From Bilabrum cf. latius (Eukaryota), in assembly GCA_965178125.1 (NCBI GenBank), contig OZ237738.1, positions 1,240,001 through 1,304,000 on the forward strand: DNA of 64,000 bases, given 5' to 3'. Within the stretch, counting starts at the first letter, position 1, and each line of letters begins with the position of its first letter. Of this stretch, positions 838 to 25,860 are shown piece by piece. The translations under genes and the position numbers were made by a program. Below the pieces are notes generated by a model. The model was not told the origin of the DNA. It did no database searches and was given only the letters and a program-made list of their open reading frames with translations.

Positions 838-889
838 GATAAGGTTTATTAATAAATATTTATTTGTATAGCTTTAATATATAAATAAA

Positions 890-1843: not shown

Positions 1844-2360
1844 ATAAATTATAGAAGATTATAAAATATGTTTAGATATTAAAAAATTTATATCTATAGT
1901 GTATATATAAAAAAATGGCTCAACAAATGGTTCAGAATTTACCAGTAAGCATTAAGGCTCCTAAAAGCCTTCAAATGATAACCCCTGAAGATGCTAGTTT
2001 AGGAACAGAACTAGGTGTTCAAAAATATACCCGCCGAGAAATTAGACCATCATCTAATCAATCTAATTCTCTTCTTCCCCTTTCTTTCCCCGTTAATCCT
2101 ACTAGTAAAACCGTATCAAGGTTTATTCGTCTTCGTCATCGTATGACAGTTAGGCTACAACTAGAGCAAGCAGTACCAGCTCAAACTGCGGGAGGTGATG
2201 CTATTACCGCTCAATCTTATCTTAAATCTAGGTTTGGAACTAATTCATTACCTACCTTTAAAATGCTTCAAGGTGGTGTTTTAACAATTAATGGATAGCC
2301 TTTTACAGTAAAAGTTTATGAATGGGCTGAACCTACTGAAGTTATGAACAGTGAAGAAAC

Positions 2361-3403
2361 GGGGGGGACAACAGGTGGTGGTAGGTACACCAAGCGTTTA
2401 GGACGAGGGCTACGCTACGCTCGCCCCTCCTTTAAAGGCATATTTAGCAACTCAAGTGTTTCCCCTATAAACCTAAATGATTTCACAGGGGGTTCCCCAA
2501 GAACCCCTATAGAACCCCTCTATGTACCCATTTTCAGATATAAAATTTACTCCTACGAAGTAGGGGTAAATTGAAGAATTCTAATATTTAACCCCCTTAT
2601 AAACTCTAACAGCAAAGACAGAGATGTTTTAGTAAAGTAGGAAAAAATGAAGAAATTAACCAAGTGTCCAAAATATCTCTGTGTTTGCTGTAGGAACGGA
2701 AGGATGAATTCCCAAGAGACCAAGAGACCAACCGAGGATTTCCCCAAGAGAACAAGGTATTTTATCAAGAGACCGAGGTATGTTCCCAAGCGACAAACCG
2801 ATAAACCGACCGATGAACCGACCGATGAACCGACCAAGGATTTCCCAAGGATTTCCCAAGGATTTCCCAAGGATTTCCCAAGGATTTCCCAAGGATTTCC
2901 CAAGGATTTCCCAAGGATTTCCCAAGGATTTCCCAAGCGACTAAATTGTTCTCCGAAGCAACCAAACCGATTACCCAAGAGATGATACATTATAAGGAAA
3001 ACGAAAACGTATTTTAAGTCCCTTTGGAAAAGTCCCCCAAAAATTGAGAGATTTTACAGGTCAATTTTAAGAGACTTAGAAAGAATAAATATATTTTCCA
3101 ATTAAAATTAAATGTTGTAATTCCTATGATGCCACCATAAAAATTAAAAGGAAAACGAAAACGTATTTTAAGTCCCTTTGGAAAAGTCCCCCAAAAATTG
3201 AGAGATTTTACAGGTCAATTATAAGAGACTTAGAAAAAATAAATTAAGTTCCCAAGATGCTCGGGCTTTGCCCTCCGCTCTTTTGATATCTTTTTCAAAG
3301 ATTAAAATTAAATGTTGTAATTCCTATGATGCCACCATAAAAATTAAAAGGAAAATAAAAAACAAATTATAATTGTTTTCCAATTAAAAACGCAAAAATT
3401 GAT
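2361..3403 (+). repeat. Left terminal inverted repeat of inner virophage
   Basis: Reverse complement of ~18676-19606. Contains 9 copies of 11-bp CCAAGGATTTC and ~155-bp internal sub-repeats. Confidence 0.92.
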
Positions 3404-3627
3404 GGAAAATAATATAGGATACAAAGAAATATTAAAAGGGTATAGGGATGATAATTTAAGCCATTCTATATCACTATAGTTAATGAACCCATTTTTAAAG
3501 GAGTTGATGATAGAGCATATTGTCAAGCAAATTAATCCACGTATTTGGAAAAAATTACACGAAAAACTAAAGGAATACAAGAAGCTCGGGCTTTGATATA
3601 AGTAGAAGACTATACTATAAAGTACTT

Positions 3628-3912
3628 ATGAAGCCACATACCTACGATTTTGAAAAGGTTGTCGAGAATTTTCTATTTAAAGCACCCTCAAGACGCAAGA
3701 ATAAGAAGTATGATGTTTTTGACGAAAATGATGAATACATTACATCGTTTGGTGATAGGCGGTATTAGCAATTTTACGATAGAATAGGGTATTACAGCCA
3801 TTTAAATCATTTAGATACGGACCGCCAATTTAGATACTTCAAACGACACGGTATCGAAGTAAAACCAAGAACCCCAAAGTTCTTCTCACATTTTTACCTT
3901 TGGAGTTCATAA
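3628..3912 (+). CDS. Tlr6F/DUF5754-like small protein (94 aa)
   Basis: SRRKNKKYDV...SFGDRRY*QFYD...NHLD...RY..RH...FSHFYLW; one in-frame TAG; ends TAA. Confidence 0.7.
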
Positions 3913-4443
3913 ATGACACGTCAATAAATACACTAATTCATCAGGATTTAATGTATGTTTCTTACAAACCTTATCCACCCACTTTTTATACTAATCAGCG
4001 TTTTTCGCTCTATTCCAAAGACGAACTATACAATGTCTCCCGCAGGTTGCTATATCCATTCCATCCGCCTAAAACTAATATGGGTTATAGTCAATCTTAT
4101 ACGGAGAATGATACATTAAATATATTAACTCAGGGTCTTCATAAAAACGTTTCCGCACGCTTTCACTCATTGTGTGCTATTGCCTATCAGGACGAATTCC
4201 ATAACTGTCAAAGAAGTATATTGTTTTATTACGCTTAAATAAGCACACCCAGTGTCCAGAATTTATTTCTTCTTGGTATAGAATGATACAACAATTACAA
4301 CGACTAAATAATCCATCAATACTATTGTACTATCCTAATTCTGTATATGGAACGATGTTTACCGACGTAGGAAGAAACCCCTTAATATTTGGTGGAGTTT
4401 GGAGGAGAACACGAATATCACTATCGCTAAGAGCATAATCCAT
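3907..4443 (-). CDS. Virophage maturation cysteine protease (adenain-like, 178 aa)
   Basis: GHWVCL, YFFDSYG and YNPY*F*ADGMDIATCGRHC motifs; 5 in-frame TAG; ends TGA. Absent from the ORF track. Confidence 0.92.
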
Positions 4444-4632
4444 ATATATTTATTATAGAAACATATATTGGGGGAGATGAATTCTCTTAACCACTATTTA
4501 AGCGTAGAAGTATTTCTACAAAATCCGTTTTGGAATTTGTGGATAGCATAAAAGACAATCATTCAAAATAAGTTTTCAACAAAAAGACAAAACACTTTAG
4601 AAAAAATAAAAACATATAGTAAATACACTAAA

Positions 4633-5535
4633 ATGGCTCATTTTTCTTGGAAGGAAACTACAAAATCAACACCCATCGCATATGACACTCACGGAAAACG
4701 TATTTTATACACGGCGGAAAACACAGACAACCAATTTGGAGATGATAGTATGTCATTTTAGGATTTTCAAGTATCATCACTTACAGGGAAACGATTTCCG
4801 CAGAGGAAAATGGATTTATTAGCACGACACTTAATCAAACAGGTCGAACCCCTAGACGAAGACATCAAATACTTGTATGAAAAAGCATAGGAAAAGAAAC
4901 ATAAAGAGATTACATTAAAATAGGGTGAATTCCAATCATTACCAAATTTAAACGGAAGAGAGGTAATATATATCACCGCACCATCAGGTGCTGGGAAGTC
5001 TACTTGGGTTTCCAAGTATGCTAAGAATTATCATAGAATGTTTCCAAACAGGAGAATTATTTTATTTTCACGAGTATAGTAGGATAAAGTCTTAGATGAA
5101 GTGAAAGGACTGAAAAGGATTATTTTAAATGAGGAACTGGTGGAGAACCCGATTGATATTCATTAGGAATTAAGGGACGCCTTAGTAATCTTGGATGATA
5201 TTGATACAATCAAAGATAAGAAGTTAAGGGAAGCCCTCAATCATTTACAGGATGAAATATTATAGGTTGGTCGCCACTCAAATACTTCAGTATTAATCAC
5301 AAGTCATTTATCCACCAACTATAAAAGTACCCGTATTATTCTTGCGGAAAGTCATAAGTTCGTTATATTCCCTTAGTGTTCTTCCGCACATTCTCTAAGG
5401 TATTTACTAAAAAATTATATTGGACTTGAGAAACAAGAAATCTCTAAAGTCCTAAAAATGCCTTCTCGGTGGGTTTGTGTTCATAGGAATTACCCGAGGT
5501 ATTTAATTGGAGAAAGGTAGGCTTACCTTCTATAA
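4633..5535 (+). CDS. FtsK-HerA/A32-like genome packaging ATPase (300 aa)
   Basis: Walker A APSGAGKST, Walker B LVILDD, GRH motif then ITSH; only TAG interruptions; ends TAA. Absent from the ORF track. Confidence 0.93.
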
Positions 5536-5564
5536 TTTTGGTCAAACTTGTTATAAAAGTTTCT

Positions 5565-5804
5565 TTAAATAATATTCTATTCTCTTATATACCGACTTGC
5601 TTGAGGTAAACTCATACCAGTCTACTACATCACCATTTTTACAAGTTTATTGCGGCGTTTCATTTTGGCGCTCACTTTCCGCTTAGGCTTACTACGGCCT
5701 TTTCCAACTTTAATATGATGGTTTTTAACTCTATTTAAAGCGTCTTGTTCTTTCTATAGCGCGAGTTGTTTGGTTCTCTATATAATCCACTTATCAATAT
5801 CCAT
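5565..5804 (-). CDS. Small basic protein (79 aa), candidate DNA-binding core protein
   Basis: MDIDKW...VGKGRSKPKRK...RRNKLVKMVM..TGMSLPQASRYIRE; TAG read-through; ends TAA. Confidence 0.55.
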
Positions 5805-5869
5805 TATACTATACACAAACACTTTATTTTTTATTTTTTGGTCAAGCTTTTTATAAAAGCTTATAGTAA

Positions 5870-7051
5870 ATGAAAACTGCTAAAGTGAATGCTCTTATTC
5901 AGCAAGCCCTAGAAAGGGAACTGGACAATGCTAAAATGTTAGATTTACAGGCAAGGGACGACGTAGATTTAGAAACAGAATATAGTGATTTTATAAGGAA
6001 AAGGGCAAAAATTGAACGATTAAAAGAAAGTGGAAGGTATGGAACTCCAGCGTAGAGAAAATAGGCAGACCAAAGCAACGAGGAAATCATATCTAAGTCA
6101 ATATCTGGTATAATGAAAGGTATTATTGAGGGTAAAAATGTAAGTCCAGCAGTGAAAGCATTGAAGGATTTTGTTGGTAATATCAATATGTCTCCACAAA
6201 TGAAGCAACAACTCGCCCGTCAATACGTTAACATAGAGAGGTTTCAAAGGAAAGGATACGAAGGACTGCAGAGAGTTCCAGCTGAGGATAGAAAACAACT
6301 CTTAGAATTAGGGAAAGTTATATAGGAGGCATCCGGACAACGAATACCGTAGGGAATGTTGGGAATTGATTAGTAGCCAACATCTTTACAAACACCTGCT
6401 CGAACAACAAGAAGAAACACGTTTTCCGCTCCAACACAAGTACAGCTTCCAAAAAGGTCTTCGGGTGCGTATAAATAGTTATTGGAAAGAGCCAGAGAAA
6501 GAATACAACAAGACAGACCCTTAACTGAAAAACAACGAATAGCGTGGGATTTAGAATAGGGAAAGAATTTCTCACAAAGAACATCACAGGGGCAGACAAA
6601 TATGTTTTAGCATTTTCAAGAGGGTTCAAGTAGTAATGCGTCAAAAACATCAAAAGACTTAGATGCCATATTAGCCGCAGCGAGCAATGAAAGACCACTA
6701 CCGCAAGGAAGCACTCCGGGGGCGTGGGACCCAGAAACTGGTGAGTACTATGATATGCCGAGTAGGATGGAAATTGAGCAGGGAATTGGAAAACGTGCTA
6801 CTAGACCTGTGTAGCGATTTACGGGGTTTAGTCCGCCCTATGGAATGTAGTAGCCTGATTTAGAAGACCCACCATCACGCGCAATGACTGTAGAAGAAAG
6901 TGGAAAACCAAAAAAGGGGAAAGGATTAACAGGTGGAAAAAGAATTATCTATGATACAGCAATGAATGTAGCCAAGAAAGTAAAAGGAAGCACTAAAAAT
7001 ATTCATCATTAGGTTGCTATGGAACTATTACATCTTTTAGGAAAAGATTGA
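5870..7051 (+). CDS. Hypothetical protein (~393 aa) with C-terminal GKGLTGG motif
   Basis: Track ORFs 5870 and 6113 are in the same frame, joined via TAG; ends TGA. Confidence 0.6.
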
Positions 7052-7116
7052 CCAAAACCTCTTATATACATCTTTTGGCAACCTGATAAAAATTATATCT
7101 GTGGATATACTATAAA

Positions 7117-7608
7117 ATGTCAGTCTCAAATCTTCTATCTAAGAACAGTCTAGACCTTATGTCTCAAACTATTACGTGTAATGTTGTGAGTAGCGACGCA
7201 ATTAAAGTGTCCGCAATTACTAACTCTACGGGAGCAGTCATAGGCAATCCAAGTATTGAATTCAAAGACGGAGAGCCTTATATGGAGTGGGGTGAAACTG
7301 TTCTACGGTTTGGAAAAAACGGAGCGTCTGCTGGTTGTCAGTTCAGTATGAGCGAAGAAGGAGAAAGATGCGATATTTCACTAGTTGGTTCATTCAAGAC
7401 TTCTCAAGAGGGTGTTGTTGGGCTGAGTGAGGTTGCTGGAGCTACATTGGCTGACGCTTCTACCCCTATTAATACGTCAGCAGAGCGAAAGTTCAAGGGC
7501 GCTTTAGTGTATAATGGAAGCGACAACGATGTCTATGTGGCGATTGGCAGTTCTTCTACATCTAGTTGGAAATCCTTAGTGTCAGGTTCACTTATTACAC
7601 CATCTTAA
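7117..7608 (+). CDS. Hypothetical beta-rich protein, putative fibre/spike; homologous to 32940-33461
   Basis: GETVLRFGKNGASAG...EEGERCDISLVG matches GEALRFGANTASAG...EDGHECDLTVKG; lies just upstream of the penton. Confidence 0.6.
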   Translation: MSVSNLLSKNSLDLMSQTITCNVVSSDAIKVSAITNSTGAVIGNPSIEFKDGEPYMEWGETVLRFGKNGASAGCQFSMSEEGERCDISLVGSFKTSQEGVVGLSEVAGATLADASTPINTSAERKFKGALVYNGSDNDVYVAIGSSSTSSWKSLVSGSLITPS

Positions 7609-7664
7609 TTATACTTTAGAAAAGTAATCAAACCCACCCCATAATTATAAACGTCTATAGTAAA

Positions 7665-8774
7665 ATGAGTTCTCCAGACCGATTTTACATTACCGCAAAC
7701 ATACGAAATAACGAAGATACTTTCCAACCAGCGACCTATAGCGAAACCCGCAAGTAGCCATTATTAGATAAGGATGTTGGTGATTATACGATGTCAGTAT
7801 TCCGGTTTTCCATAAGCACCAATTCAATACCTTTATGGGTTCCACACATAGAAACCGATAAAGTGAAAAATCCATCTTCAAATCCTAATCAAACGGTGTA
7901 TAGAATAAGCATTACAGATGAAGACGGAGTAAGTTTATGGACCTCAAGCATTCAGTGGAGACCCTAGTTAACAGGGGAAAACCAACCATCTTTTTCCAAT
8001 CCTATGTAGTTTGTTCCTTATTATTATATGTATTCCGTGTAGCATTTTGTTGATTTATTCAACGAAACCATATAGAATGCTTTATCAGCGGATATTACAT
8101 CAGTTCCGGTTTTACTCTTTAAAGATGGAAAGTTCAGTTTAGTAGCAAACCCCGATTACGACGAGGAAAACTCAGGACAGAAATTTAAATTAGTGTTGAA
8201 TGAAGCCCTTAACGAACTGATGACGGGTTTTCCTATGGAACGAATGGATATCCAAGATGACGACTTATACGCCAGTATTCTATTCAAAACCCTAGGAACC
8301 AATGTTTTATTCGATGATGGCTCTTCTGTTGGAAAATATGAACCTTAGGCATACTTCGAGGGAAACCCAACGGGAGACTACAGATTAATGATGACCTAGG
8401 AACGAGGGAGTTTAGTGTAGTTTTAGATTTTTCGCGGAATAGTTTTCACATCTTCAAGTCTTCCAGTGAGGAGTGAGGCAATATCCTAGAAATCCGCCTA
8501 TGGACAATCCACTAATACAGTTCAAAATTCAGGTTCAGGGACCGAGAGTTTATTAGTGGATATGGATTGTGTATTAGATGATACTGAAACAGTTAATTAG
8601 CAGGTTCTTCAATACCAGCCCCATATTCTCCACGAAATTGATTTTTTAGATACACATTCAGTAGATAGGATTTAGTTTAATCTATATTGGAAAGACAATT
8701 ATTCAAATCTAAGACCTCTTTATTTACGCCACGGAAGTGTGAGTGTGAAGTTTTTATTTAAGAAACGGAAGTGA
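7665..8774 (+). CDS. Minor capsid (penton) protein, inner virophage (369 aa)
   Basis: ATG 7665 to TGA 8774 with TAG read-through. YSETRK*PLL, SIPVF, IVFTSSSLPV, LYWKD, VKFLFKK motifs; precedes MCP. Confidence 0.88.
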
Positions 8775-8879
8775 AATTAGTTTTGTATTACTTTTATGAA
8801 GAAACGAGTTTGCGTTCTTTTCTAAAGAACTGAGTGATAGAATTTTATTCGTTGTATATAATATACAAGGAAAACAAAA

Positions 8880-10646
8880 ATGTCATTGAATACATTTGCC
8901 CTTCAGCCAGTCAAAGTATCTCCCGCAACATTAGACGTACAACCAAAGCCTTATGAAGTTCAAGAAGGTTATGAGAACCGAACGTTTCGCAGATACGCTC
9001 CATCTGGTTCAGCCGGTAATTATAATTCAGGTGTGAATTGGAATATTAGTATGCCTTCAGGTGTAGGTTTATGCCGCCGCGCATACGTGTCTTGCCGTTT
9101 TTCCATTACCTTTTCCGTGAATAATCAAACCGCAGGTGCTCTCGTACCATTTACACCAGATTACGATGCTCCACGCTCATATCCACTTAATCGCTCCATT
9201 GCAACACAGACAGTTGGTATCAATAACATTCGCTTTACTTAGAATAACGCGGAAATAATGGACGTAGTGTCCCATTGTTTAGATGATGATGTTCATCGTG
9301 TGAATTGCCTTGATAGTGTGTATAGACGCGACAATGTGCCTTCATACGCGATGATGAGTTAGGCTACAAATAACGCTCTTGCTTCGTATGAGGACGTGCT
9401 TTAGGACCAACCCGCAAGAGGAAGTGGATTTTATAACTTGGTTCAAATGGATAACACTCCAGTGCCCGCAGGTCAAACGCAAAATCGTGTTCTTGTCTTT
9501 GAATGTACTGAGGCGGTTCTTTGCCCACCTTTCCATTACGAAAGTAAATAGGAACAACCAGCCATTTTCGGTTTAGAAACTCTTTCCTTGGATATCAATT
9601 GGTCGCAACTGAGTAGAACCGTGTGGTCTCGTATTCCACAATAGGACTTAACTGCTACCGTTTAGTCGGTAGATGTCCAGAACCCCTATTTATACCTTGA
9701 ATAGATTACCCCTAAAACAGGGTTTGTCCTTCCAAAACAGGTATCCTATGATATTTTTGAAATGACTTCATATACTCAAAGCTATGGTGCAACAATCAGC
9801 GCAGGAACAACAGCAACTCTTACGAACAACAATATTAAACTTAGCAATTCAGTTCCATCTCGTCTATTTGTGTTTGCCCGTCGCTCACCTACCAGCGTCT
9901 CAGTAGATTAGGGAAACACATTCCTTGGAATTGAGGGAATATCTATTGAGATGAATAACCAAAGTGGATTACTCGCAGATGCTTCACCTCAGTAGCTATG
10001 GGACTTATCCAGAAGCAATGGACTTGAATAGCAATACGCGGAATGGGCTATGCGTAAATTCGGGGATAGGGTGCTATCAGGCGCAATTCTCTCCATCGAC
10101 CCCGCCAAGGATTTGAGCCTAGATGTAGATTAGACAAATGGAAGCAACGGCTCTAACCAATTGTCTATCACCCTACGAGTGAAGAATAATGATGTTGTAG
10201 ATTACCAAAATGTGTAGTGTGTGGTTGTGGGATTGTACGAAGGAGTAATGAATGTGATTGATGGTTCTAAGATTGAGTATTAGCAGGGTGTCATCTCACG
10301 GGCAGATGTTCTTTCCGCCTCTAAACTACCCGTAGTATATGAAAGTCAATTATCAGGACTACACGGTCGCGGTCTTGGGAAAAAGATTAGACACGCCTTA
10401 AAAAAGTTCGCACACAAAACCGCTGATTGGGTAAAGAAAGGCAATCTCAAAAAAGTATTAAAGGATGGTAAGTAGGTATTTGACACCGCTAAAATGGTGG
10501 GTGAAATGGCTGGTATGGGACGCCAAAGGAAACCCCGAAAAACTACCAAGAAAGGCAAGGGCTTAACAGGTGCCAAGTTGGGTTCTGGATTAACAGGTGG
10601 TAAATCTCTCTCTCGCAATCAATTACTCGCTATGCTCCAAGCTTGA
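8880..10646 (+). CDS. Major capsid protein, inner virophage (588 aa)
   Basis: Virophage-MCP-like motifs PS...RRAY, YPL...INN, VPSRLFVFAR, QLWDLSRSNG; Gly-rich basic tail with LTGG; TAG read-through; ends TGA. Confidence 0.9.
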
Positions 10647-10701
10647 GTATGAAAAGGGTAAACCAATAAATATTTGTCTTGGTATATAGTATATCAAAAC
10701 A

Positions 10702-11319
10702 ATGTCAGTATCATCTGCTGTAATGGTTGCTGGGACTTTGGCTCCTTTAATGTATTCTGGTAGTCGGTGTCTATATTCTTGGTGGACGAAAGACGGAACT
10801 TAGAAACAGAAATCCTGCGTGGTTGTTCCAAAAGGCTCTGGGAAAACTACTTTGTGTCGCTCTATAGAAAGTGTTGATAAAGACACTTTGGTCATTGACT
10901 TAGATGAATGCGTAAATGGTTAGATTTCAGGGTAGGAAAAATAGAAAATGGAGAAAATGCTAATTGATGGTGATGAAAGCACCCACCGTCTCTTTTATTA
11001 CTCTTAGTCAAGATTAGTGTATGAAAAAATTAAAGCGGATTGGCTCACAAAGAAATCCAGGCGTTTAATTGTTATGGTTGGTTCGTTGGAATTAGCGAAA
11101 GATTTATTTAAGGAAAGTTCAATTTTTGTGTGTGTGCCTTCTCACAGTCTTTTTGAGGAAATCCGTGAAGGGAAAAAATCGGGGGACTTATTGTCTGTAG
11201 AACGCTCAAGAACGAATTTAATCGCTGGATTACATTAGAGTTAGTACTGTGTCTATTCATCCTTTTAGCAACTGGAGGAATTCGTCCGGAAAACCTTCGG
11301 TCTTGGAAGTCGTCTATGA
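10702..11319 (+). CDS. P-loop NTPase/kinase-like protein (205 aa)
   Basis: PKGSGKTT Walker A and LVIDLDE; hydrophobic N-terminus; TAG read-through; ends TGA. Confidence 0.65.
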
Positions 11320-11344
11320 GTTTTTTAATACAAGCCTATACTAA

Positions 11345-12601: not shown

Positions 12602-12621
12602 TTTATGATTGTGTATAGTAA

Positions 12622-13263
12622 ATGGCGGGTGTTGATGATTATACCGAAGAACAACTACATTTACTGGCTAGTTAGCCACATCAGAGTTTGGGGAAAGACG
12701 CTAGACAAGCACTAGCAATTTTGAAAGGATTGAGGAAGCACTAGAGTATAGGGGAAAAGTACGCTAATCGTGTATATGTAAACCCTTAGGAAAGGGAAAT
12801 GATGGAAATGCTCGCCGAAAAGACCGAACAAGAATTTGATACGCTAGGAATTGACAAAGATAGTGATGGTGATTATGACGTGGGTATACTAAAATTCTTA
12901 TCACCATCACTACACGAGCAACACGACACAACACTTGATGATTTTAATTAGGCAATTCATAGAAAATATGCGTCAGAACGGAGAGATACTATGCGTGAAT
13001 TTTTTGATGCTAGAGAGAAGGGAAACAGTTAGAAAGAACTATTATCATCGAGATAGGCTAGAGTAATGCGAATGGGTGGTGAAGTGCCTGATTGGGGCTC
13101 GAGCGAAAGAGCGAAGTAGAGTTTTAAACCACAAAAAACTGGAAAAGGGAGGCGCCGTCGGAAAAACCCAAAAGCAAAACTAGCAATGAAAATCGCTCAG
13201 TAGTTAAGAGGTAGAGGATATGGGAAAAGTGATGCTCTAAAAATTGCTTGGTAGAATGTATGA
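12622..13263 (+). CDS. Hypothetical protein (213 aa) with basic ALKxAW C-terminus
   Basis: ATG to TGA with TAG read-through; C-terminus LRGRGYGKSDALKIAW. Confidence 0.6.
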
Positions 13264-13304
13264 CTTAAATCTAACTCTATAGTATAATACTATAGAATAC
13301 AAAA

Positions 13305-13577
13305 ATGACACTCAGTCATTCAGAAAGAAAAGAACAGGATAAGCTGTATGCCCGTGAATACTACCGGAAAAACAAGGAAAAACTTGGAGAATAGATAAAG
13401 TGTTCCTGTGGTGGTGTATATAAGAAGTACAATAAATCACATCATTGTAGAACCAAAAAACACCTTGATTGGCTTAAAAAAGAGGAAGACACAAAAAGGG
13501 AACAAATTAATATTATGGATGAACTTGATAGTTTGCGATAGGAAATTTAGAGACTAAAGGAAAAGCAGACTATTTAA
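13305..13577 (+). CDS. Small C2H2-type zinc-finger protein (90 aa)
   Basis: EYYRKNKEK...KCSCGG...KSHHCRTKKH; homologue at 33502-33804. Confidence 0.7.
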
Positions 13578-13633
13578 TTCAATCTTTTCTAAACACTTTT
13601 ATGCCGTTCCACCGGTAAACTGCGGTGCTTTGG

Positions 13634-15475
13634 TCAATCTTTTCTAAAAATTTTCTTCTTACTGTGAATAATTTGACATTCACCTGATTGCTCCAACTTC
13701 ATACCCCCAAGGTTCGTTGATAACTTTAGAGGTAATTCTTTCTCACTAATGAAACCATCCGTGTTGACATAGTGAATGTTTTCAAGATATGGCTCAATCA
13801 TTTTGGACAATTTACTTCGTCCAAGTCCAGTCAGAAAGGGGCCCATTCTTGCGTAGGCTGTTTTGTAATCGTACTCTTCGTCATATAGTATACCCGATAC
13901 AAGTCGTCCAGATGCTTTAGGATACGCGTTCTTTAATTGTCTAAAATTCATACAATCACCATCTCGGAGTGTTTTTGTGATTGTGTTTTTCTAACATAGA
14001 GAACCCCAAATATTATTTAGTATCTCCTTCGCACACTTCAATCCCTATTTTTTATAACCGTACAATCGCTCAATCATCGTTTTGAACAGTCCATTTGCCT
14101 TCACCCTTGTTGTCTCATCGTAAAGTAAAGCGTTGGCTTCACCGTCTTCAATCAGAGACACCTAAGCGCCCGTCTCAATCGCTCGGTTAATGTCATATTG
14201 GGTATAATAATTGTTTTTTCTTTTTTGTACTAATTTAGAATTGAGATTTTCAATATGTACCCTAAAAATGCCGTACGGATAGAACCCACTGGATGGTACT
14301 TTAAATTGTACGAACTTACCCCTTCTAACCGGAAATGTAAATGTACCCTTCATAATACTTGGATAAAATGAGTTAATATCGTACTGGTATGCGTTTTTTA
14401 ATGTAGTATTCTTGTTTGCCCAATTCAATCCACCACCCGAGGCTTTAGAAATCCATAGTGCTTCAACTTGGTCAATCGGGTCGGCAGGGTAAAGTTTGGA
14501 AAACTTACTGAAATACGACTTTACAAATAGGGATGTTCTAAACATAAATCGTGATAAATCCATATATCCACCCGTCTCCTTCGCTAATGCCCTTACATTT
14601 TTCATCCGTTCTTCGTGTTTTGTTCTTAGTTCTTCCTTGGACTTGACTTCAAAGATGAATTTATCCTTGGAAACTGATGTAATGCCTTCTGATTGATACT
14701 CACGGTCTCCATCAAATAGTAAATAAGAATTCTCGGATTGATACAAGCGGGTAATTAGCGTACACGGTTCTTTAGACGGCGGTGTAAATAATTCTTTCTA
14801 ACTAATGGGGGGAACATACTTGTAATGCCCATTTGTTAATGAAACAGTTAGAAGACGGTCAAAATGAGTTTTTCCAGATGTGTATTCAAAGTCGCCTACA
14901 ACATGAATGCGTACTTGAAGTTCGTCTTCTATCTCTGGTATTCTTCTGTAATCAACGGGGTCATCACGTCCAATTTTCAAGAGTTCTTTGAGGTCGGACT
15001 TCGACAATCTTTTAATAGTAGTTTTCCATTTGCCTTTTGCGCTCTTTACATTTACCTTACGACCAACTGAAAAAGGAAAAGCCTGTTTTATAGCGTTATA
15101 TAAACAATCGTTATGTTCGTCAGCACCGCCTTCTGGTTCTGGCTTTCTAATAAGCAGTAGTTCAAAAGAATTCAATTTTCTATATTCGTCGTCATCGTCG
15201 TCTTCGTAGCCCGCCCATAAACTATCTTGATTTTCTAAATCATCTGTAGTAATCCAAGTGCTTCGTGTTCGCCAACCTGTATCTTGGTAATTGATATTCA
15301 CCTTAAATTTAAAGTCATCAAACGGATTTTCACCACCATCGTCGTAATCACGAATAAATTCCAAGACATTTTTTACGGTGATAAGGTCCTCGCTCTCAAA
15401 TCGCATACTCCATATTGGTTTCCCATTAAGACGCAATTTGGTTCTTTGGGGTTCCGTAAAATCGATTTCGGGCAT
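13634..15475 (-). CDS. Protein-primed family B DNA polymerase, inner virophage (613 aa)
   Basis: Three track ORFs in one frame split only by TAG; YDINSFYPS, KEILNNIWG and VNTDG motifs. Confidence 0.92.
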
Positions 15476-15494
15476 TCTATAGTATCTATTATAT

Positions 15495-15526
15495 TATAGA
15501 ATACGATAATTATTCTTAAGGTACGA
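15495..15526 (-). promoter_or_regulatory. Conserved 32-bp upstream motif (copy before pPolB)
   Basis: TCGTACCTTAAG-N9-CGTAKTCTATA on the sense strand; same spacing at 17209-17240 and 18627-18658. Confidence 0.7.
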
Positions 15527-15532
15527 ACTCAC

Positions 15533-17194
15533 TCACTTCTCAATTTTACAGAGGAATTTGGAAAGTTTTCCTTTTTTGTTCTTTGGTGGGTTCTCTTTTA
15601 TCCATTTTTGAATAGCGATGCTATTCTCAACACTCAGCTGTTTCTGGATTTTCTTATGGACTTGTTCCGTCGGTGTAATCTCCTTTTCTAATTCCAACTA
15701 TTCAATCGTTTCCTACTGCTATGCGACTTGTTTCTGTAGTTCTCTAATCTACTCTCGAAGAACATCTACCTCGGATTTTGCTTTTTCCATCTCAGCAGAA
15801 TGACGAAGTGCCTAAAATTTAGATTGGAAGCCTTTTAGTAAGTCTGCGTGTTTCACATTAAATTCTTGTTTTCTCTATTTGTTCATCGTTGAATGAACAC
15901 CTACCTCTGACAATAGTGTTTTAATCATAGGTGTACCAAGGTTCTTCACTCTACCGTTCAGTTCCTGCTTTAGATAATTGCGGAATTCCAAGACTGTCAT
16001 TTTAAAATCTCTGCCTTCGTCCAGCCACTCTTCTTTTAGAATTTTTAAAACCGGATGTGCGCCATCAAGAATTCCTTTGTAAAAATTCTTTGATTTTGGT
16101 GCGAATTGTCCTGTAAAGTCTGGTGATGTATCATAGATTTCAACCAATAACATATAAAATGCCTTAGCCACTTCTGGATTTTCTGTAAAACGTTTTAGTG
16201 TTGTAAAGTATTCTTTGTCTCCTTTCTTAGATGTATTCACATCCAAAACACAATATCTACGGATTTCCTCGGTGATTTTGATTGGACTATCATTCGTATC
16301 AATAATTAAATTGAATGTATTCGGACGACTTTCGGATTTGACAAACTTCTCATTACAGGAAAAGTGTTTTTCCGTAATAAGATTTCTTAGTGTTGCCTAC
16401 ATGGCGTCCCAAATAGTTGGCGAGGCTTTTGGAATTTCATTAAAATTGACTAATAGTTTCCCGTCCAGAATTGAGTTGAAGGCGTCGGGTTGAAGCATCT
16501 TGTGTGTAAGCGTCTATAGTGTGAGGGTATATCCGAGTAGTTTTCTCATAAGGAAGGTAATAATCATCGATTTACCAGTTCCTTGTGGAGATTTCAAATA
16601 TAGTGCTGTACCCAACTTCTTTCCGCCCACAATAACGTGAGCCAACCACTTCATCACAAAATCACACTATTCTTTGTCTTCTGAAGTCCACACCTTCTGG
16701 ATATGTTCGTAAATCATAGTCGCGCCTGCTTTTGCGTCTTCGGTTAAATCCTCTATGTTTCCACAGTTTTCCCGTGTAAGTATAGGTGAACCCATAACGT
16801 TAATTGTTTGATTGTCGTAATCAACGGTAGGTGAATTGAATTTTCTTACAATCGTAAATACGTCGGTATTCTCATTTAAGAACCAGTCTCGTGCTGACCA
16901 AGTCTTTACTCTTTTGTTGCCCACAATCGCGTAAATACAGTGTCCCCCAATCAGGTAATTTTCAGTAATATTTTTATTCGTAAGGAACTACCAGACTGGT
17001 TTCTGGGGTTCGTCATCACTTATGTTATTCCGATTTAATTCAGATGCTATTAGAAAATACACCCCGCCACCTTGTTCGTGGGTGCGGTAGAAGTATTGTT
17101 TAAGGTATTGAATACATTCCTCTTGTTTTCCGGCATTACATAGGTCCATAAGGCTTTTTGACGAATACGCTTTAGTCGGCAGAGTGAATGACAT
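15533..17194 (-). CDS. Superfamily 3 (D5-like) helicase (553 aa)
   Basis: LYLKSPQGTGKS Walker A, LVNFNE Walker B, RRYCVLD; C-terminal coiled coil; TAG read-through; ends TGA. Confidence 0.85.
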
Positions 17195-17208
17195 TTTTGT
17201 TGTTGTAC

Positions 17209-17240
17209 TATAGAATACGAAAATAATCCTTAAGGTACGA
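17209..17240 (-). promoter_or_regulatory. Conserved 32-bp upstream motif (copy before helicase)
   Basis: Same motif, 14 bp upstream of ATG 17194. Confidence 0.7.
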
Positions 17241-17251
17241 TACGGGGCATC

Positions 17252-18307
17252 TCAATTTTCTATATCCCACTCCAAAATTAAATTAGGAGCAATTTCTTGG
17301 ATTTTATTCTTTGGTTCCCACGTCCAATGTTCTGGTTCTGGAAAATCTTTCCATTCTATTTGATATTCTGTTTCGTTCTCGGATTTTATTTTTTTTGGGA
17401 GAAAGATTGTCTGAGCATCTCGGTTATTGTCCTCATTATCAAAGTCGATAATCTGTAATTCCTCTTTTGGATAAGCCACTAAATCATCCTAATCCACAAC
17501 ATATAAGGGTGGTTGTCTCGGTCTTAATAATACTTTAGTTATCGTTTTGATTTCTGGATTATAGCGTAAATCTGAAGCACGAAAATTTCCGGATAATTTT
17601 TGCTGTAAATTTGTAGCCTTTCTGGGTTCTTCTAATGGTATACGAACTCTTGTACCCTCTTCCAATATATTACAAGCGTCTCCTTTACACTACGTAAAGT
17701 CGAAGTGTTCTGGGGGTAAAGGTGGTTCTTCTATATACTTTTCTAGTTGATATTCATTATAGTTTTCAATGATGTTTGGAAGCATATCCACCCATTCTAC
17801 GCTTTCATTACCTGTATTTAACTCATTAACGTTCTATAGGGTAAATATGGCTTTTCCCAACGTTTTATTTAGGTTTTCCACTAATGCCTGTTGTCGGTGG
17901 CGACCTGCTTTATTTCTTCGTACAAATACATCGGTCTCTTCTAAATATCTTTGTAAAGCGTTAAATTCTTTTCCATTATCTATTTCCAAACGGTGCTGCG
18001 GTTTCTGGACATTACCACGATTGAAAATCTTTTTTGATGCCTTTAATACTTCGTTCTAACGCTTGGTTTTGAGCGGTTCAGCATCGGCCTACTTTGTATG
18101 TAAATCAATAGCAGTTAATGCGTATTTATAATTATTGTCGTGGGGTAATGATAATAAATCCATTTGTACCACTTGGTGAGGTTCTGGTACATTTACGTGG
18201 GGTCGATTTACTCCTTTGGGTCGTTTTGGTCGTTTCATTAAATTTACAATACGACTGTTGGGATAAATGTTTAGGGATTGTAATATTCTTTCAAAGGCGC
18301 TACTCAT
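17252..18307 (-). CDS. Retroviral-type (rve) integrase with C-terminal chromodomain (351 aa)
   Basis: QMDLL, AIDLHTK, IDNGKEF, QALVENLNKTL (DDE triad); EYQIEWKDFPEPEHWTWEP chromodomain; consistent with the 5-bp TSD. Confidence 0.93.
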
Positions 18308-18372
18308 TTGCTATATAGTTGTATCATTCTCCTTACTTTTGTAAAGTAGGGAAAATAATTCTTGGGAAAAAA

Positions 18373-18612
18373 TCATTTGGTTTTGGTACTTTCGTGCCAT
18401 TCAACTACAATTTGACTTAAATCTTTAGCTTCCTCAAAGTCAGCAAGCAGGTCATCGTCATCATCATAATTAATCCAAATAATAGTCTTTGTAAATTCAA
18501 GGTACTTTTTGGCCATATCGTATGCTTCTCGTGTTGTAATAAACGGGACTGATTTAAGACATTCTTTGGTCGCCAAGATGTAATTCTCGAGTTCCTTTTG
18601 TGATTTTGCCAT
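18373..18612 (-). CDS. Hypothetical protein (79 aa)
   Basis: Clean ATG-TGA ORF preceded by the conserved 32-bp upstream motif. Confidence 0.6.
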   Translation of the reverse strand: MAKSQKELENYILATKECLKSVPFITTREAYDMAKKYLEFTKTIIWINYDDDDDLLADFEEAKDLSQIVVEWHESTKTK

Positions 18613-18626
18613 TTATGTGGTTGTAC

Positions 18627-18658
18627 TATAGACTACGTAAGTTATGCTTAAGGTACGA
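18627..18658 (-). promoter_or_regulatory. Conserved 32-bp upstream motif (copy before ORF 18612)
   Basis: Same motif, 14 bp upstream of ATG 18612. Confidence 0.7.
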
Positions 18659-18675
18659 CATTTCCACTTTAGGCA

Positions 18676-19606
18676 ATCAATTTTTGTGTTTTTAATTGGA
18701 AAACAATTATAATTTGTTTTTTATTTTCCTTTTAATTTTTATGGTGGCATCATAGGAATTACAACATTTAATTTTAATAGGGAACTTAATTTATTTTTTC
18801 TAAGTCTCTTATAATTGACCTGTAAAATTGACAAGTTTTTTGGGGACTTTTCGAAAGGGACTTAAAATACGTTTTCGTTTTCCTTTTAATTTTTATGGTG
18901 GCATCATAGGAATTACAACATTTAATTTTAATTGGAAAATATATTTATTCTTTCTAAGTCTCTTAAAATTGACCTGTAAAATCTCTCAATTTTTGGGGGA
19001 CTTTTCCAAAGGGACTTAAAATACGTTTTCGTTTTCCTTATAATGTATCATCTCTTGGGTAATCGGTTTGGTTGCTTCGGAGAACAATTTAGTCGCTTGG
19101 GAAATCCTTGGGAAATCCTTGGGAAATCCTTGGTCGGTTCATCGGTCGGTTCATCGGTCGGTTTATCGGTTTGTCGCTTGGGAACATACCTCGGTCTCTT
19201 GATAAAATACCTTGTTCTCTTGGGGAAATCCTCGGTTGGTCTCTTGGTCTCTTGGGAATTCATCCTTCCGTTCCTACAGCAAACACAGAGATATTTTGGA
19301 CACTTGGTTAATTTCTTCATTTTTTCCTACTTTACTAAAACATCTCTGTCTTTGCTGTTAGAGTTTATAAGGGGGTTAAATATTAGAATTCTTCAATTTA
19401 CCCCTACTTCGTAGGAGTAAATTTTATATCTGAAAATGGGTACATAGAGGGGTTCTATAGGGGTTCTTGGGGAACCCCCTGTGAAATCATTTAGGTTTAT
19501 AGGGGAAACACTTGAGTTGCTAAATATGCCTTTAAAGGAGGGGCGAGCGTAGCGTAGCCCTCGTCCTAAACGCTTGGTGTACCTACCACCACCTGTTGTC
19601 CCCCCC
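18676..19606 (-). repeat. Right terminal inverted repeat of inner virophage
   Basis: Mirror of the left TIR with only 3 copies of the 11-mer and lacking a ~45-bp inner segment. Confidence 0.92.
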
Positions 19607-20352
19607 GAAACCTTATCCACAATCTCACCCGTTGGACGCCCTGACACTGTTGGTGATTATCGTGAAGTAAGTGATACCCTTAAAAATCCTTTAGCTTGGG
19701 GTTAGGATGTTGGATATAGTGCCGGTGATAGCTTTAGTTATCGTGGAGCATATGGGAATGCTTTTACGACTGTAAGTGCTGATTTCGTTGCGGGTAATAG
19801 AGACCAAATTGATTGGACTATTGATTTTCAAGAAGCTATACCACTAAAAGGAGCAGATGTTGATGTGAATGCTAAATATTTCACCGGTGTGAGAAGCCTT
19901 CAGGTTGATTTAGATTATCACGTAAATGCCATTCAAAGACTGTGTAAGGCTAGTTTTACAAAAGATAACGGAGATATTAACAAAATAACGGGTTAGTCAA
20001 TTATAGGAGAAACAAATACGACCCTTCTTGTTGATGAAGTTGAATTTTAGAGTGGATACGCCCCCCCGACTCGTTGTATGTATAATATGCCTACAATTAA
20101 ATTTTAGTCTTAGGCGCCTGTCCCTGTACCTAAATCCGCAACTGAAAATTCTTTAACTTCTTTTGATTATCAATTATCCCGTGAGAATGGTATCCCTAGT
20201 GCTATTATGGTATGTGCCCGCCTTGTTGGTTGTGATGATAACCCTAACTGGGCTAATAGAACTTTACCAATTAGAAGAATAGGTTTCTCACTCAATGGAA
20301 GCGCTGAGGAATTAGGGGCTGTAGATAATCCACACGAATTTTATAAAAAAAA

Positions 20353-21025
20353 CAGGACGTCCCTGCGCCCGTCCCGCGCCCTCTCCCCCCCACGAGGGAC
20401 AGTCCGCCCCGAATCGACTGGTTCTCCTCAGTCGCGTCTCGCGCATGCTATACCACACTCGCCACAAATGTACACGCTACCCCAATCCTTGCATCGTCTG
20501 CGCCTCCAGGCTCGCTCCGATGCCTCCCCTTCTAGTCCTGCCCCATTCTGATCTGCTGTCTCCCTACGCACCCGTACGTCTCAGCCTTCGCCAGAAATCC
20601 TACTGCCTTGTGGTCTGGCCCCACTCGGCTGCCTCCGCTGCCCCTCCCTCCCCATGGGCCTCCACGCTCCCGAGCCCTACTGGCTTGCTCGGGCCTGTCC
20701 GTGCCCCTTCGTCGTCCCCGCCACGCGTCTGGTTAACCGCGCTCGGGGCATCCCGATCCTCCCCTTTCCTCCGTTCATCTTGGAATCCCCCTCTCCGTCG
20801 CCTCCCCCGGTGCCACCCGACCCCTTGGTGGGCCGCCGCCCGTCCACCCTGTCACCTCCGCCAAGCTCCCCCGTCTGCTCCTGTCCCCCTCTCACCTGGC
20901 CCCCTCGCTGTCACCTCCCGCCGTTGTTGTCCTCCACCTGCACGTGCGCTGCTGCTGTACCCTCCCCGTCGGAGCCCCCATCGCTGTCTCACAGCCCTCA
21001 ATCCCAATGTCTGATGACACAGATA
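20353..21025. mobile_element. Unclassified ~670-bp GC-rich, C-skewed insertion in outer MCP
   Basis: Sharp composition change, inserted in an A-run; MCP frame resumes after it. No TIR, LTR or credible ORF recognised. Confidence 0.7.
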
Positions 21026-21778
21026 AAGTAGAAAGAACGGATATGCTCTTCCTCCTTCATCCTTTTATGGTTCATCAATTGATGGAAGTGATGGAAACCG
21101 CGGTACTGGTTGCTATATGATTTTAAAACCTTCAGATGTTGCTACACTTGCTGGTGTTCAATCTAATGTAAATACTGGATTTAATCTTAAAGTTAATCTT
21201 TAGTGCTTCAACCCTTATAATAAATATGCGGATGGTGCGTATGAGGATAAATACGAGGTAAAAGTATGGATGTTTTATGATAATGTTCTTGTGAATGATA
21301 ACGGTGTCTATACTGAGGCTGGCGCCCTTATTGAGCCTTCTAAAGTGCTTTCTGAACTTGCTAAACGTGGTGATGCTGAAAGTGGTTCTAAAGGTTTCTA
21401 GCCTGTATTTGAGGATTTAGATAATTATGCTAATGTTATGGGTGGAAAAGGTCGTTTCTGGTCTAAGATTGGACGAGCCTTTAAACACGGATGGAACAAG
21501 GTTAAAGATTGGGCAAAAAGTGATTAGGCTAAAAACCTAGCGAAAACCATTAGGAATATAGGACCACTCAAAAGTCTAACAGGAGACAATAGTGCTCTTG
21601 GCAAAGCGGCGGCACATTATGGATATGGAAATAGTGGAGGAGAATTGAATAAACTTGGTGGAAAACTTACGATGCGTGGAGGTGCGGCAATGAAAACAGA
21701 CGATCTTGAGGCCCTTTTAAGCACATCTTAAACGTTTAAAATGACTTAAATATATATTAACTAACTAATATATATCAA

Positions 21779-23804: not shown

Positions 23805-23934
23805 TCTATATATATTATAATAAAATAAAATCTTTAAGTCATTTTAAACGCGTGTATTTGGCTTAAAAATAAAATATCGTTTTCGCATTTCTTGATACTT
23901 AAACACAAGATAACATATAATAATATATACGGAA

Positions 23935-25040: not shown

Positions 25041-25860
25041 TTACATTTTATAATTTAAACTTTATAATATGTGTTTAAAATGGCTTAAAAATATATTAAA
25101 TATAATATACTATAGGAAATGATAAATTATGAAAATGTGTTAAATCAATTAAATATATGCTTTGGTAAAAAGTATGATAACCCCATTCAATCCGTGAAGT
25201 ATCTAGAAAAGGTATTTAACGGTAAGCCCATAACTACAAAGAACCTTTATAAACTTGTTTCAGGTTTAAAAATGGATATAGAGATTAGAGAGAAAGACGA
25301 TATAAAGGTCTATTATCTAAGTAGGAAAAAAGAGAGTTTTAAAAGGGTTTGTTTAGAATATAAAGATGGTTCATTTAAAGCCGTCTAGAGGATGAAACCT
25401 TTATTTGTGCGGTGCCATAAATCTATGGTTGTTAAATTAACCGATAAAGCCGAAATAATTGAAAAAGATAAATATAGAGTTGAGAGCCTAACCGATTATC
25501 ATTCAAAGAAATATTATCTTCATTACACCATTCACGAATGCCCAGAGGATGAAGATATCAAAGAATGGAGCTTAAGGCTGAGTATAGCAAGTGATGAATT
25601 ACACGACGAGAACCCATCATTAGATGTAATGAAATATGGAATCAGACAAACAGCCCTTCATTTCTTTACAATGTTTAATATGATGATAGATAGCCCACCA
25701 GATATAACCCCAGAGGAAGCGGTATTTATTGAAGGTTCAACGCGTGGCGGGATTCAATATCACAAGAAGGGACAATATGAGGAGTTTATCACCTACGATA
25801 TAAATAGTCATTACCCCGCCATTATGTCATCTAATTCACTACTACCATATGGAAATCCTG

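Follow-up and report, generated by a model that had tools for sequence, protein, structure and literature searches.

Why does one virophage lie within the capsid gene of another, and does its position reflect chance, the state of the target DNA or antagonism between the two viruses? The locus lies in a window of 64,000 nt from Bilabrum cf. latius (contig OZ237738.1, positions 1,240,001 to 1,304,000, forward strand), whose coordinates are used throughout. The outer element is a type B virophage of ~28 kb; this copy, insertions included, runs from -14727 to 41257. Comparison with uninterrupted copies bears out the original prediction that it carries four insertions. The outer genes and the insertions other than the inner virophage are laid out as follows:

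1..837, plus strand: 3' end of Ngaro 1 (B1 at 330-475, A2 at 472-671, B2 at 692-837)
890..1843, plus strand: outer penton (minor capsid protein), 317 aa with 5 TAG codons (PF21507, E 5e-7)
1915..2360, plus strand: 5' part of the outer MCP (20 genome matches)
19612..20348, plus strand: middle part of the outer MCP (98-99.7% to uninterrupted copies)
20349..21026, minus strand: 'GC insert', a solo A repeat of a third Ngaro family (27 genome matches)
21027..21731, plus strand: 3' part of the outer MCP, from comparison with uninterrupted copies
25119..25859, plus strand: 5' part of the outer pPolB (PF03175, E 5e-7)
25856..31280, plus strand: Ngaro 2, 5'-truncated (RT/RNase H at 28038-29864, YR at 29783-30778, B repeats at 30819-30948 and 31151-31280)
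31281..31984, plus strand: 3' part of the outer pPolB
33863..36640, minus strand: outer Prim-Pol/PriCT-2 protein with a Walker A motif, a putative primase-helicase, 925 aa with 20 TAG codons
40831..41257, minus strand: right-hand TIR of the outer element, 427 bp, with 100% identity to its left counterpart (-14727..-14301); the TSD TTCTT follows

The Ngaros belong to the DIRS order by their A1-ORFs-B1A2B2 repeats, RT/RNase H, tyrosine recombinase and lack of a TSD. Ngaro 1 starts at -3654, and its interior is mostly a degenerate 284-bp tandem array, with complete split repeats. Ngaro 2, which has RVT_3 and Phage_integrase Pfam matches and B repeats, interrupts the outer pPolB with a loss of ~55 bp of target. 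The insertions had been expected to disable the MCP and pPolB. The MCP is indeed hit, as is pPolB by the right Ngaro, but the left Ngaro is intergenic, 52 bp ahead of the outer penton ATG. The 'GC insert' is a real insertion in the outer MCP, its identity now corrected to a solo A repeat; it is antisense, has no TSD and has cost ~10 bp of target. Hence, the inner element is not the sole lesion of that MCP. A full Ngaro of this third family (8.8 kb, G000:C12:321732-330522) has split repeats and RT/RH-like and YR-like ORFs, recognized by motif only. In addition, the outer rve integrase of this copy contains an in-frame TAA that is absent from 6/6 other copies checked.

The inner element, a type A virophage, occupies 2361-19606 (17,246 bp) and has the termini G7...C7. 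Its inverted TIRs are ~1 kb long (left about 2361-3403, plus strand; right about 18676-19606, minus strand), and the left one contains 11-bp and 154-bp internal repeats. Its features are:

2356-2360, plus strand: left TSD GAAAC, flanking the element
3907..4443, minus strand: inner putative cysteine protease (His/Asp/Cys motifs, no Pfam match)
3966..3978, plus strand: 13-mer identical to the hot-spot sequence of the outer MCP, in 12/12 type A copies and possibly a chance match
4633..5535, plus strand: inner putative packaging-type ATPase (generic AAA Pfam matches only)
7665..8774, plus strand: inner penton, or minor capsid protein (PF21507, E 1e-10)
8880..10646, plus strand: inner MCP, 588 aa with 14 TAG codons (PF22031, E 2e-27; PF21915, E 2e-22)
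13634..15475, minus strand: inner protein-primed DNA polymerase B, pPolB (PF03175, E 2e-5, slightly below cut-off)
15533..17194, minus strand: inner SF3-type helicase (DUF5906, E 3e-15)
17252..18400, minus strand: inner rve integrase with a C-terminal chromodomain (rve, E 2e-9; Chromo, E 7e-6; both above cut-off)
19607-19611, plus strand: right TSD GAAAC, flanking the element

With a virophage-type MCP and penton, type A is a virophage; its MCP is assigned to the virophage-type double jelly-roll by the two Pfam matches. The outer MCP is also of virophage type. Its Pfam match is weak (E 0.0035), and its identity to the MCP structures of mavirus and Sputnik is only 16-19%. A modelled natural, uninterrupted paralog (pLDDT 58) is predicted to fold like these proteins (mavirus MCP, E 2.5e-26; Sputnik MCP, 3.5e-22; PBCV-1, 2.5e-12), the model having been built from an alignment with virophage MCPs and so being biased toward the virophage fold. 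As had been claimed, the inner and outer MCPs are highly divergent (23% identical, E 7e-13). The claimed difference in replication modules holds for the helicases (SF3-type with DUF5906 inside, Prim-Pol/PriCT-2 outside) but not for pPolB, which is common to both. The two putative proteases are 32% identical (E 9e-19), and their His, Asp and Cys motifs, which may form an adenain-like triad, align; neither has a Pfam match. P-loop ATPases lie in the morphogenesis block of both elements and resemble one another (E 6e-8); the Pfam search gave no match for the outer one. Both types carry the EMALE/mavirus-like set of rve integrase, pPolB, TIRs and ~5-bp TSD, the latter 5 bp long in 17/17 type A and 11/11 type B copies with both ends fetched. 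By these gene and terminus features the element works like an EMALE, and it may belong to that group.

All type A and type B reading frames need TAG to be a sense codon, most likely Gln both in host genes and in the two viruses. Among type A copies, 23 of 35 TAG-alternating sites alternate with CAG/CAA. In comparison with type A2 (50-69% identical), 46 of 124 TAG columns hold Gln or TAG, Lys being next with 13. Host myosins contain in-frame TAG and no TAA/TGA, and a short-arm nuclear tRNA with a CTA anticodon was found. TAG makes up 40-49% of Gln codons in the resident viruses versus 9/166 in the GC-rich host myosin genes sampled. The single TAG of BiP counts against Gln in host genes, as its column is Leu, Asn or Met, and never Gln, in 120 relatives; none of 9 myosin TAGs falls at an invariant column. 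Overall, the genome most likely has a UAG = Gln code, to judge from TAG at Gln positions, TAA/TGA stops and a tRNA-CUA; the case is strong for the viruses and weaker for residue identity in host genes. Types A and B would then be translated in the host code, with TAG read by the nuclear tRNA-CUA. Other co-resident virophage types avoid TAG.

The nesting itself is confirmed: type A sits within the MCP gene of type B, flanked by the TSD GAAAC as originally proposed. The 5' part of the outer MCP has at least 20 matches in the genome. In 18 of 20 type B MCP matches the site is uninterrupted with a single GAAAC, the exceptions being this locus (C4) and G000:C12. With TAG as a sense codon, ten of the 11 uninterrupted copies fetched have a 629-aa ORF, and the remaining one lacks the start anchor used. 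The single GAAAC together with these ORFs shows that the duplication is real. We saw seven virophage-in-virophage events in this genome, and nesting here involves at least five virophage types. Type B also lies inside type A, and inside other types. By itself such nesting is ordinary, being known from Halocafeteria and Cafeteria.

What is new is a second, most likely independent, type A insertion at the same spot in another B copy. At G000:C12 a type A element lies inverted with the TSD AAACC, a 1-bp shift from GAAAC. In the INDEPENDENCE of the C4 and C12 events the host flanks differ, as do the outer TSDs (TTCTT versus GATTA). Both inner TSDs are perfect without borrowing homopolymer letters, whereas 8 of 17 TSD calls, at other sites, took 1-3 letters from G/C runs. 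Between the two type A copies there are 234 substitutions in 14,871 nt, as well as a ~330-nt indel and 50 mismatches in the TIRs. The two have one private site in common, and the right arm of the C12 copy is identical to that of the C40/C30 copies, not to C4. Likewise, the B haplotypes at 2175/2190 differ, each also occurring in uninterrupted copies (9 and 6 of 17). As host locus, A genotype and nearby B haplotype all differ, two independent integrations are most likely. The recurrence is a single one (n = 2); the chance that a pair among the three A-in-B insertions falls within 1 bp is 3e-4 over B and 1.6e-3 within the MCP gene.

Could one integration have produced both loci? An A-in-B composite would have been copied to a second locus by gene conversion or through the ends of B, its inner element flipped between the TIRs and its genotypes recombined, the 1-bp shift being a junction mutation or an assembly error. 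Composites do duplicate here: type B inside type C occurs at C2 and C6 with identical flanks. That pair, however, kept its orientation and TSD, whereas here an inversion would be required plus two junction changes jointly creating a new perfect 5-bp duplication. Type A copies are recombinant mosaics, but most A markers, including both TIRs, would have to be replaced. Apart from the Ngaro junction, no difference separates the B copies of C4 and C12 over a stretch that begins ~170 nt upstream of the site and ends ~730 nt downstream, so the haplotype SNPs are compatible with a short conversion tract. Both junctions adjoin G7/C7 runs, whose length ranges from 6 to 10 letters among copies. Several type A pairs at unrelated loci are 0-1 substitution apart, which implies low assembly error. 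Among the contigs listed for four public read runs, none spans the C12 junction. One run (X6) hints at it, as its MCP contig stops exactly 30 nt from the AAACC start and the mixed consensus of loose ends behind the TIR fits the C12 junction at 20 of 30 letters. A single origin thus appears distinctly unlikely, and two independent integrations 1 bp apart are strongly indicated, judging from the assembly.

We compared the 17 type A insertions for a target preference. Three lie in type B and one in a Ngaro, and the other 13 have GC-rich flanks; no TSD consensus was found among the 17. The original prediction of AT-rich proviral islands as preferred landing sites fits the 'GC insert' Ngaro family, in which, for the ten best genome matches, flanks are AT-rich in 9/9 distinct elements and match type A or B DNA in 7/9. 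It fits the virophage poorly, and type A is not a general provirus-seeker. Against genome-wide expectation, A-in-B insertions exceed the genome fraction (3/17 versus ~0.2-0.6; P = 8e-4 at 1.1%, 0.017 at 3.3%), but no excess is left when insertions are taken to be tolerated in neutral DNA alone (P = 0.24 at 10%).

One mechanism proposed for such a preference is that the chromodomain of the integrase recognizes silenced chromatin in AT-rich proviral islands, with recurrence a by-product. Type A integrase does carry a Chromo domain, and the seven nested events and the A-in-B excess over genome fraction are in line with this. However, 13/17 insertions have GC-rich flanks, the clear provirus preference belongs to a Ngaro family with a tyrosine recombinase, and tethering at domain scale would not yield a 1-bp recurrence. 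Halocafeteria proviruses, moreover, are described without 5mC marking in the part of the report consulted (bioRxiv 10.64898/2026.07.28.741278). We regard chromodomain guidance as improbable.

At base level, type A target sites have a weak symmetric purine-left/pyrimidine-right bias (P = 0.00075, 15 other sites), and the MCP spot ranks in the top 3.2% of B positions by this measure. The bias alone is too weak to single it out, since the top 3% of a 28-kb element amounts to ~900 positions. Every type A copy also contains the 13-mer that begins at the C12 TSD; this common sequence is not predicted by a purely passive model.

The same 13-mer enters the idea of inter-virophage antagonism, in which type A is steered to the B capsid site by a tethering protein or a shared short sequence and knocks out a competitor for the giant-virus factory. 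The second independent hit, 1 bp away in another copy of the same gene, lends it some support: two of three A-in-B insertions fall within 1 bp, in a gene indispensable to B, and A-in-B insertions exceed genome fraction. While none of the 15 other target sites matches type A over 9 nt, the 13-mer (12/12 copies) came to light post hoc, and matches as good occur at 2-3% of B positions. Moreover, 14/17 type A insertions lie elsewhere, and 18/20 B MCP copies are unhit, so that competitors could supply capsid in trans. Type B in turn inserts into A and other types, and for the three shortened MCP matches checked at other loci, the stretches fetched contain no junction with a virophage TIR. In EMALEs, too, Hackl et al. 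detected no sequence-specific integration (PMC8547959). Antagonism is therefore unlikely. Its fuller form is just as doubtful: besides integrating at random, type A would home to one rival capsid site and disable it, in a targeted warfare between endogenous virophages, with TAG reassignment splitting code-committed residents (A, B) from TAG-free types readable in either code.

We favour, at a probability of roughly 60%, a hot spot at the level of single bases, lying in redundant and neutral DNA, used by an integrase of weak sequence bias and hit twice independently in a genome with a TAG-sense code. The type A rve integrase would join the G7/C7-ended linear genome to its target with a 5-bp stagger and would have done so twice at one B capsid-gene spot, once per orientation. 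This spot may be locally bendable or exposed, and every near-identical B copy would present it alike. We suggest that it is passive rather than directed because of the 13/17 GC-rich flanks, the missing TSD consensus, the purine/pyrimidine bias and the reciprocal nesting. As B is redundant (at least 20 copies), hitting it should cost the host little and insertions could persist; the hit copy would then decay, as through Ngaro insertions and an integrase nonsense codon.

Virophage integration has so far been described without site preference. Two hits 1 bp apart offer a concrete target for how polinton/virophage rve integrases choose sites, and bear on whether co-resident virophages interfere with each other. 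Annotation in the standard code would make these intact viruses look degraded. Types A and B, with their heavy use of TAG, should also be tied to hosts that have a TAG-sense code, and TAG-free types in the same genome would not be; codon use may thus mark host range and residence time.

Among known systems, Halocafeteria seosinensis has 9 virophages and 5 PLVs that lie within other viral elements, and it shares TIRs, TSDs, AT-richness relative to the host, several subtypes per genome and mixed replication modules. In the parts consulted it differs in having no Ngaros, and its Results text mentions neither recurrent one-site insertion nor an alternative genetic code (bioRxiv 10.64898/2026.07.28.741278). 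Cafeteria burkhardae EMALEs share the rve-chromodomain integrase, pPolB, TIRs and short TSDs. Its Ngaros share the A1-ORFs-B1A2B2 layout, solo repeats and a family-specific preference for virophage DNA (91% of type 1), and one EMALE lies inside a Ngaro; the passages covered report no sequence-specific integration and no virophage-in-virophage hot spot (PMC8547959). Unlike in C. burkhardae, TAG is sense here. Nuclear codes in which UAG means Gln and UAA is a stop are listed for Iotanema spirale, Hartmannula sinica, Trochilia petrani and Protocruzia tuzeti; as here, UAG alone is reassigned, UAA and UGA are stops and tRNA-CUA is the expected decoder (PMC11687900, in part). Those hosts are a fornicate and ciliates, whereas the present host is GC-rich and, by indirect reasoning, probably a heterotrophic stramenopile. 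Plant LTR retrotransposons, in the part of the study consulted (PMC6911290), show integrase-driven nesting into particular element regions, a weak palindrome preference and a nucleosome-position pattern, and so provide a model for a passive hot spot. In those plants, nesting favours the same family and does not often involve coding regions, whereas the insertion described here hit the capsid gene of a virus with 23% identity.

The window lies on contig C4 (G000:C4:1240001-1304000) of a 48.6-Mb eukaryotic assembly of 111 contigs (G000; C-numbers denote its contigs and L-numbers stretches fetched from it), and consists of AT-rich blocks (roughly 25-45% GC) interleaved with ~60% GC blocks. The inner virophage, type A, spans 2361-19606 (17,246 bp) with TIRs of ~1 kb (ends G7...C7), and both its ends are bordered by GAAAC. 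Its genes specify a penton (PF21507), an MCP (PF22031, PF21915), pPolB, an SF3-type helicase and an rve-type integrase with a chromodomain, along with a putative protease and a putative ATPase. The outer virophage, type B, extends from -14727 to 41257 (negative coordinates lie left of the window), or about 28.1 kb after subtraction of insertions, and has identical 427-bp TIRs (ends C7...G7) and the TSD TTCTT. Penton and MCP genes are present, as are pPolB, an rve integrase, a Prim-Pol protein and DUF285 repeats; a protease and an ATPase are putative. The two MCPs share 23% identity. A model of the B MCP from a natural uninterrupted copy (pLDDT 58) matches mavirus and Sputnik MCPs best, the underlying alignment itself containing virophage MCPs. 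In a genome search (at least 20 B MCP matches), a single GAAAC is read through in 18 of 20, which validates GAAAC as the TSD. The insertion of A into B at this locus is real, and the anatomy given in the original prediction is correct, except that its 'GC insert' is also Ngaro-derived and that the inner element is not the sole MCP lesion.

Three further insertions in this B copy are derived from Ngaros. Ngaro 1 (-3654..837) is intergenic; Ngaro 2, in pPolB, is 5'-truncated, with ~55 bp of target lost. The 'GC insert' belongs to a third Ngaro family, of which it is a solo A repeat; a full copy is found at C12:321732-330522, and an intron, MITE or SINE is thereby ruled out. Ngaro excision upon reactivation is described as possible in PMC10945749, hence these lesions may not be final. 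The integrase of the window's B copy carries an in-frame TAA that is missing from all six other copies checked.

Several further features accompany type B. Adjoining the outer right TIR is a 2.9-kb block of 50% GC (37872-40803) that contains a direct repeat of 63 nt (38742/40735) and three minus-strand ORFs, none with a Pfam hit; it is unmatched in the other B copies compared and may be an accessory cassette or represent a fifth insertion. A 244-aa ORF (23879-24670), GIY-YIG-type endonuclease-like by eye but with no Pfam hit, is unmatched in the C27 and C33 copies. A ~200-bp intergenic repeat, a candidate promoter or regulatory element, recurs in type B at 23008-23211, 36801-36989, 40889-41052 and -3939..-3733 (73-79% alike), these places including the B TIRs. 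By eye, A and B apparently have in common a fibre-like ORF (7117-7608 and 32940-33461) and a gene for a 205-aa P-loop protein (10702-11319 and L013:237-854), the latter seemingly also present in other virophage types. Outside the element, a tandem C2H2 zinc-finger ORF lies about 20 bp before its left end (L014:3853-5250), and a DDE_1 transposon with 27-bp TIRs (41294-44069) lies 36 bp beyond its right end. At 55056-64000, GC-rich DNA holds a retroelement with RT, a putative YR and split direct repeats, representing another Ngaro-like family.

We found a second type A element (C12:297151-314493) that interrupts the MCP of a different B copy and has the opposite orientation to the one in the window. 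Its TSD, AAACC in MCP sense, lies 1 bp downstream of GAAAC; a pair at most 1 bp apart has a chance of 3e-4 when all of B is considered and of 1.6e-3 when only the MCP gene is. One could suspect a single origin, or an artefact, behind both insertions, since the B sequence closest to the site is the same in the two copies, both junctions adjoin homopolymers, and composites can duplicate, as at C2/C6. However, the two copies differ in host locus and in outer TSD. The A elements are separated by 234 substitutions in 14,871 nt and one indel, with 1 shared private site; several A pairs at unrelated loci show only 0-1 difference. The TIRs carry 50 mismatches, and the C12 right arm is identical to those of the C40/C30 copies. 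B haplotypes at 2175/2190 also differ, each being found in uninterrupted copies as well. As an inversion between the TIRs would preserve both junctions, a single origin requires two compensating junction changes, and we consider this explanation unlikely. The read check covered the C12 junction. Seven runs were listed, all of them assembled contigs and none from RNA; in the four aligned at this junction none of the listed pieces bridged it, such contigs losing rare variants. Run X6 gives a hint in favor of the junction: one of its contigs breaks off 30 nt away from where AAACC begins, and the consensus of mixed loose ends agrees with the junction at 20 of 30 letters (our count).

A genome-wide search for type A TIRs returned 41 matches (40 of 43 candidates scored), and the 36 at ≥96% define 17 two-ended elements and 2 single ends, the latter excluded from all counts. 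A 5-bp TSD is present at 17/17 elements, with 1-3 letters taken from terminal homopolymers in 8 of the 17 calls and none in the C4 and C12 calls. Targets are type B in three cases (C4, C12, C30), a Ngaro in one (C14), and GC-rich flanks without match to the window region in 13. The probability of at least 3 of 17 insertions in B depends on the target fraction, for which we used our own estimates: 8e-4 at 1.1% (B only), 0.017 at 3.3% (all virophage, from 48 + 20 MCP matches) and 0.24 where tolerated targets make up 10%. Other nestings are a 60%-identical A relative inside B (C6:367311), B inside A (C22:659489), B inside a third virophage type at C2 and C6 (one duplicated event), and B inside a fourth type at C9, for a total of seven events in both directions. 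The composite of B in the third type, type C (G000:C2:82001-142000 and C6:686001-746000; flanks 99.99% over 13 kb), is an allelic or segmental duplicate. In contrast to type A, the third Ngaro family has an AT-rich flank at all nine distinct elements among the best 10 of 27 hits. The original prediction proposed that AT-rich proviral islands are preferred landing sites, possibly through the chromodomain, or that virophages antagonize one another; we regard both chromodomain-guided island preference and antagonism as unlikely explanations of the recurrence, and equally so.

We suggest instead a passive hot spot, at a probability of roughly 60%. Targeting by a TSD sequence consensus was ruled out, as none exists among 15 training sites. 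At the 15 other A sites, purines prevail on the left and pyrimidines on the right (mean 8.5 versus 7.0 of 14, P-value 0.00075, by a measure picked after base counts had been seen). On this measure the hot spot scores 11 in either register, which places it among the top 3.2% of B positions. A weak symmetric target preference of this sort is expected from retroviral-type integrases. A preference of that kind is described for plant LTR retrotransposons (PMC6911290). This bias by itself is insufficient to explain the hot spot. Something further at the site, for instance a bound protein or the position of a nucleosome, would have to be the same in every B copy, and insertions into redundant DNA would survive.

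The 13-mer starting at the C12 TSD (window 19608-19620) also occurs at 3966-3978 in the putative A protease gene, and in that gene of 12/12 type A copies checked. No other A target has a match longer than 9 nt, yet 2-3% of B positions match equally well. The coincidence may be due to chance; it leaves active targeting alive, without strongly supporting it. The core 10-mer, AAACCTTATC, has two occurrences in the 24.7 kb of the B copy that were scanned, one marking the hot spot and the other (838-847) the Ngaro 1 site. It was dropped as a shared targeting motif because GATAAG/CTTATC is found in only 1 of 34 listed Ngaro junction flanks (7 of them element-internal). The hot spot has no strong hairpin (-7.9 kcal/mol over 125 nt, calculated without a shuffle control).

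When the AT-rich DNA is translated with the standard code, it yields only ORF fragments, and reading TAG as Gln opens every expected gene, which rules out frameshift or assembly decay as the cause. TAG accounts for 101 of 250 Gln-class codons in type A (11 genes) and for 43 of 88 in type B (7 frames). Near-identical A copies alternate between TAG and another codon at 35 sites, the other codon being CAG/CAA at 23 of them, and comparison with the divergent A2 type finds Gln or TAG in 46 of 124 TAG columns. Six host myosin loci contain 9 TAG, 8 CAA and 149 CAG in frame and no TAA/TGA; BiP contains one TAG. Among 42 tRNA genes called (37 fetched stretches, 63 of 780 candidates scored), one, which is nuclear (G000:C23:907607-907679), has the anticodon CTA and a short variable arm. 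Together with the in-frame TAGs in myosins and BiP, it argues for a nuclear code in which UAG is sense. In the myosins TAG falls in variable, polar columns, and the BiP column lacks Gln among 120 relatives, so the identity of the residue in the host is less firm. Overall, UAG probably encodes Gln in the nucleus, with UAA and UGA as stops. A virophage-encoded suppressor tRNA was ruled out, as the tRNA inside the fourth virophage type (type D) is Met; tRNA-Met(CAT) genes lie in this type at L154:4618-4688 (C9), C3:1133102 and C25:323122. A small contig, G000:C111 (38,401 bp; L203), has clustered tRNAs, one with a TCA anticodon, and resembles a mitochondrial genome in which UGA = Trp.

TAG is absent from 5 of 48 MCP matches. 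Three TAG-free virophage loci have 178 CAA/CAG and 0 TAG in 11 ORFs (one antisense overlapping ORF removed), with TAG-rich types in the same genome:

C9:383600-389000 (stretch L207), TAG-free virophage locus
C1:620600-625400 (stretch L208), TAG-free virophage locus
C40:340800-344600 (stretch L209), TAG-free virophage locus

A division into code-neutral and code-committed virophages is possible. In a related type at C37 (L204), by contrast, TAG is used in the MCP.

The best named matches of the host mitochondrial HSP70 are at 72-74% (diatoms, Galdieria); from these weak hits and Ngaro-virophage biology we tentatively infer a heterotrophic stramenopile. An IMG/VR search with the A and B MCPs returned no loci for either. 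Neither a recurrent nested site nor TAG-recoded virophages turned up in the literature searched, whose coverage is limited, and passages of PMC10120064, PMC12220804 and 10.64898/2026.10.13.758929 hold nothing on recurrence or recoding. Virophage-in-virophage nesting as such is an already-known phenomenon; in Halocafeteria, virophages nested in viral elements are described in 10.64898/2026.07.28.741278. Ngaros in virophages are likewise documented in PMC8547959, which found no sequence-specific integration, and UAG = Gln with a UAA stop is known from a fornicate and ciliates (PMC11687900). What is new against this background is that insertion recurred almost exactly within the capsid gene of a rival, and that the virophages are recoded.
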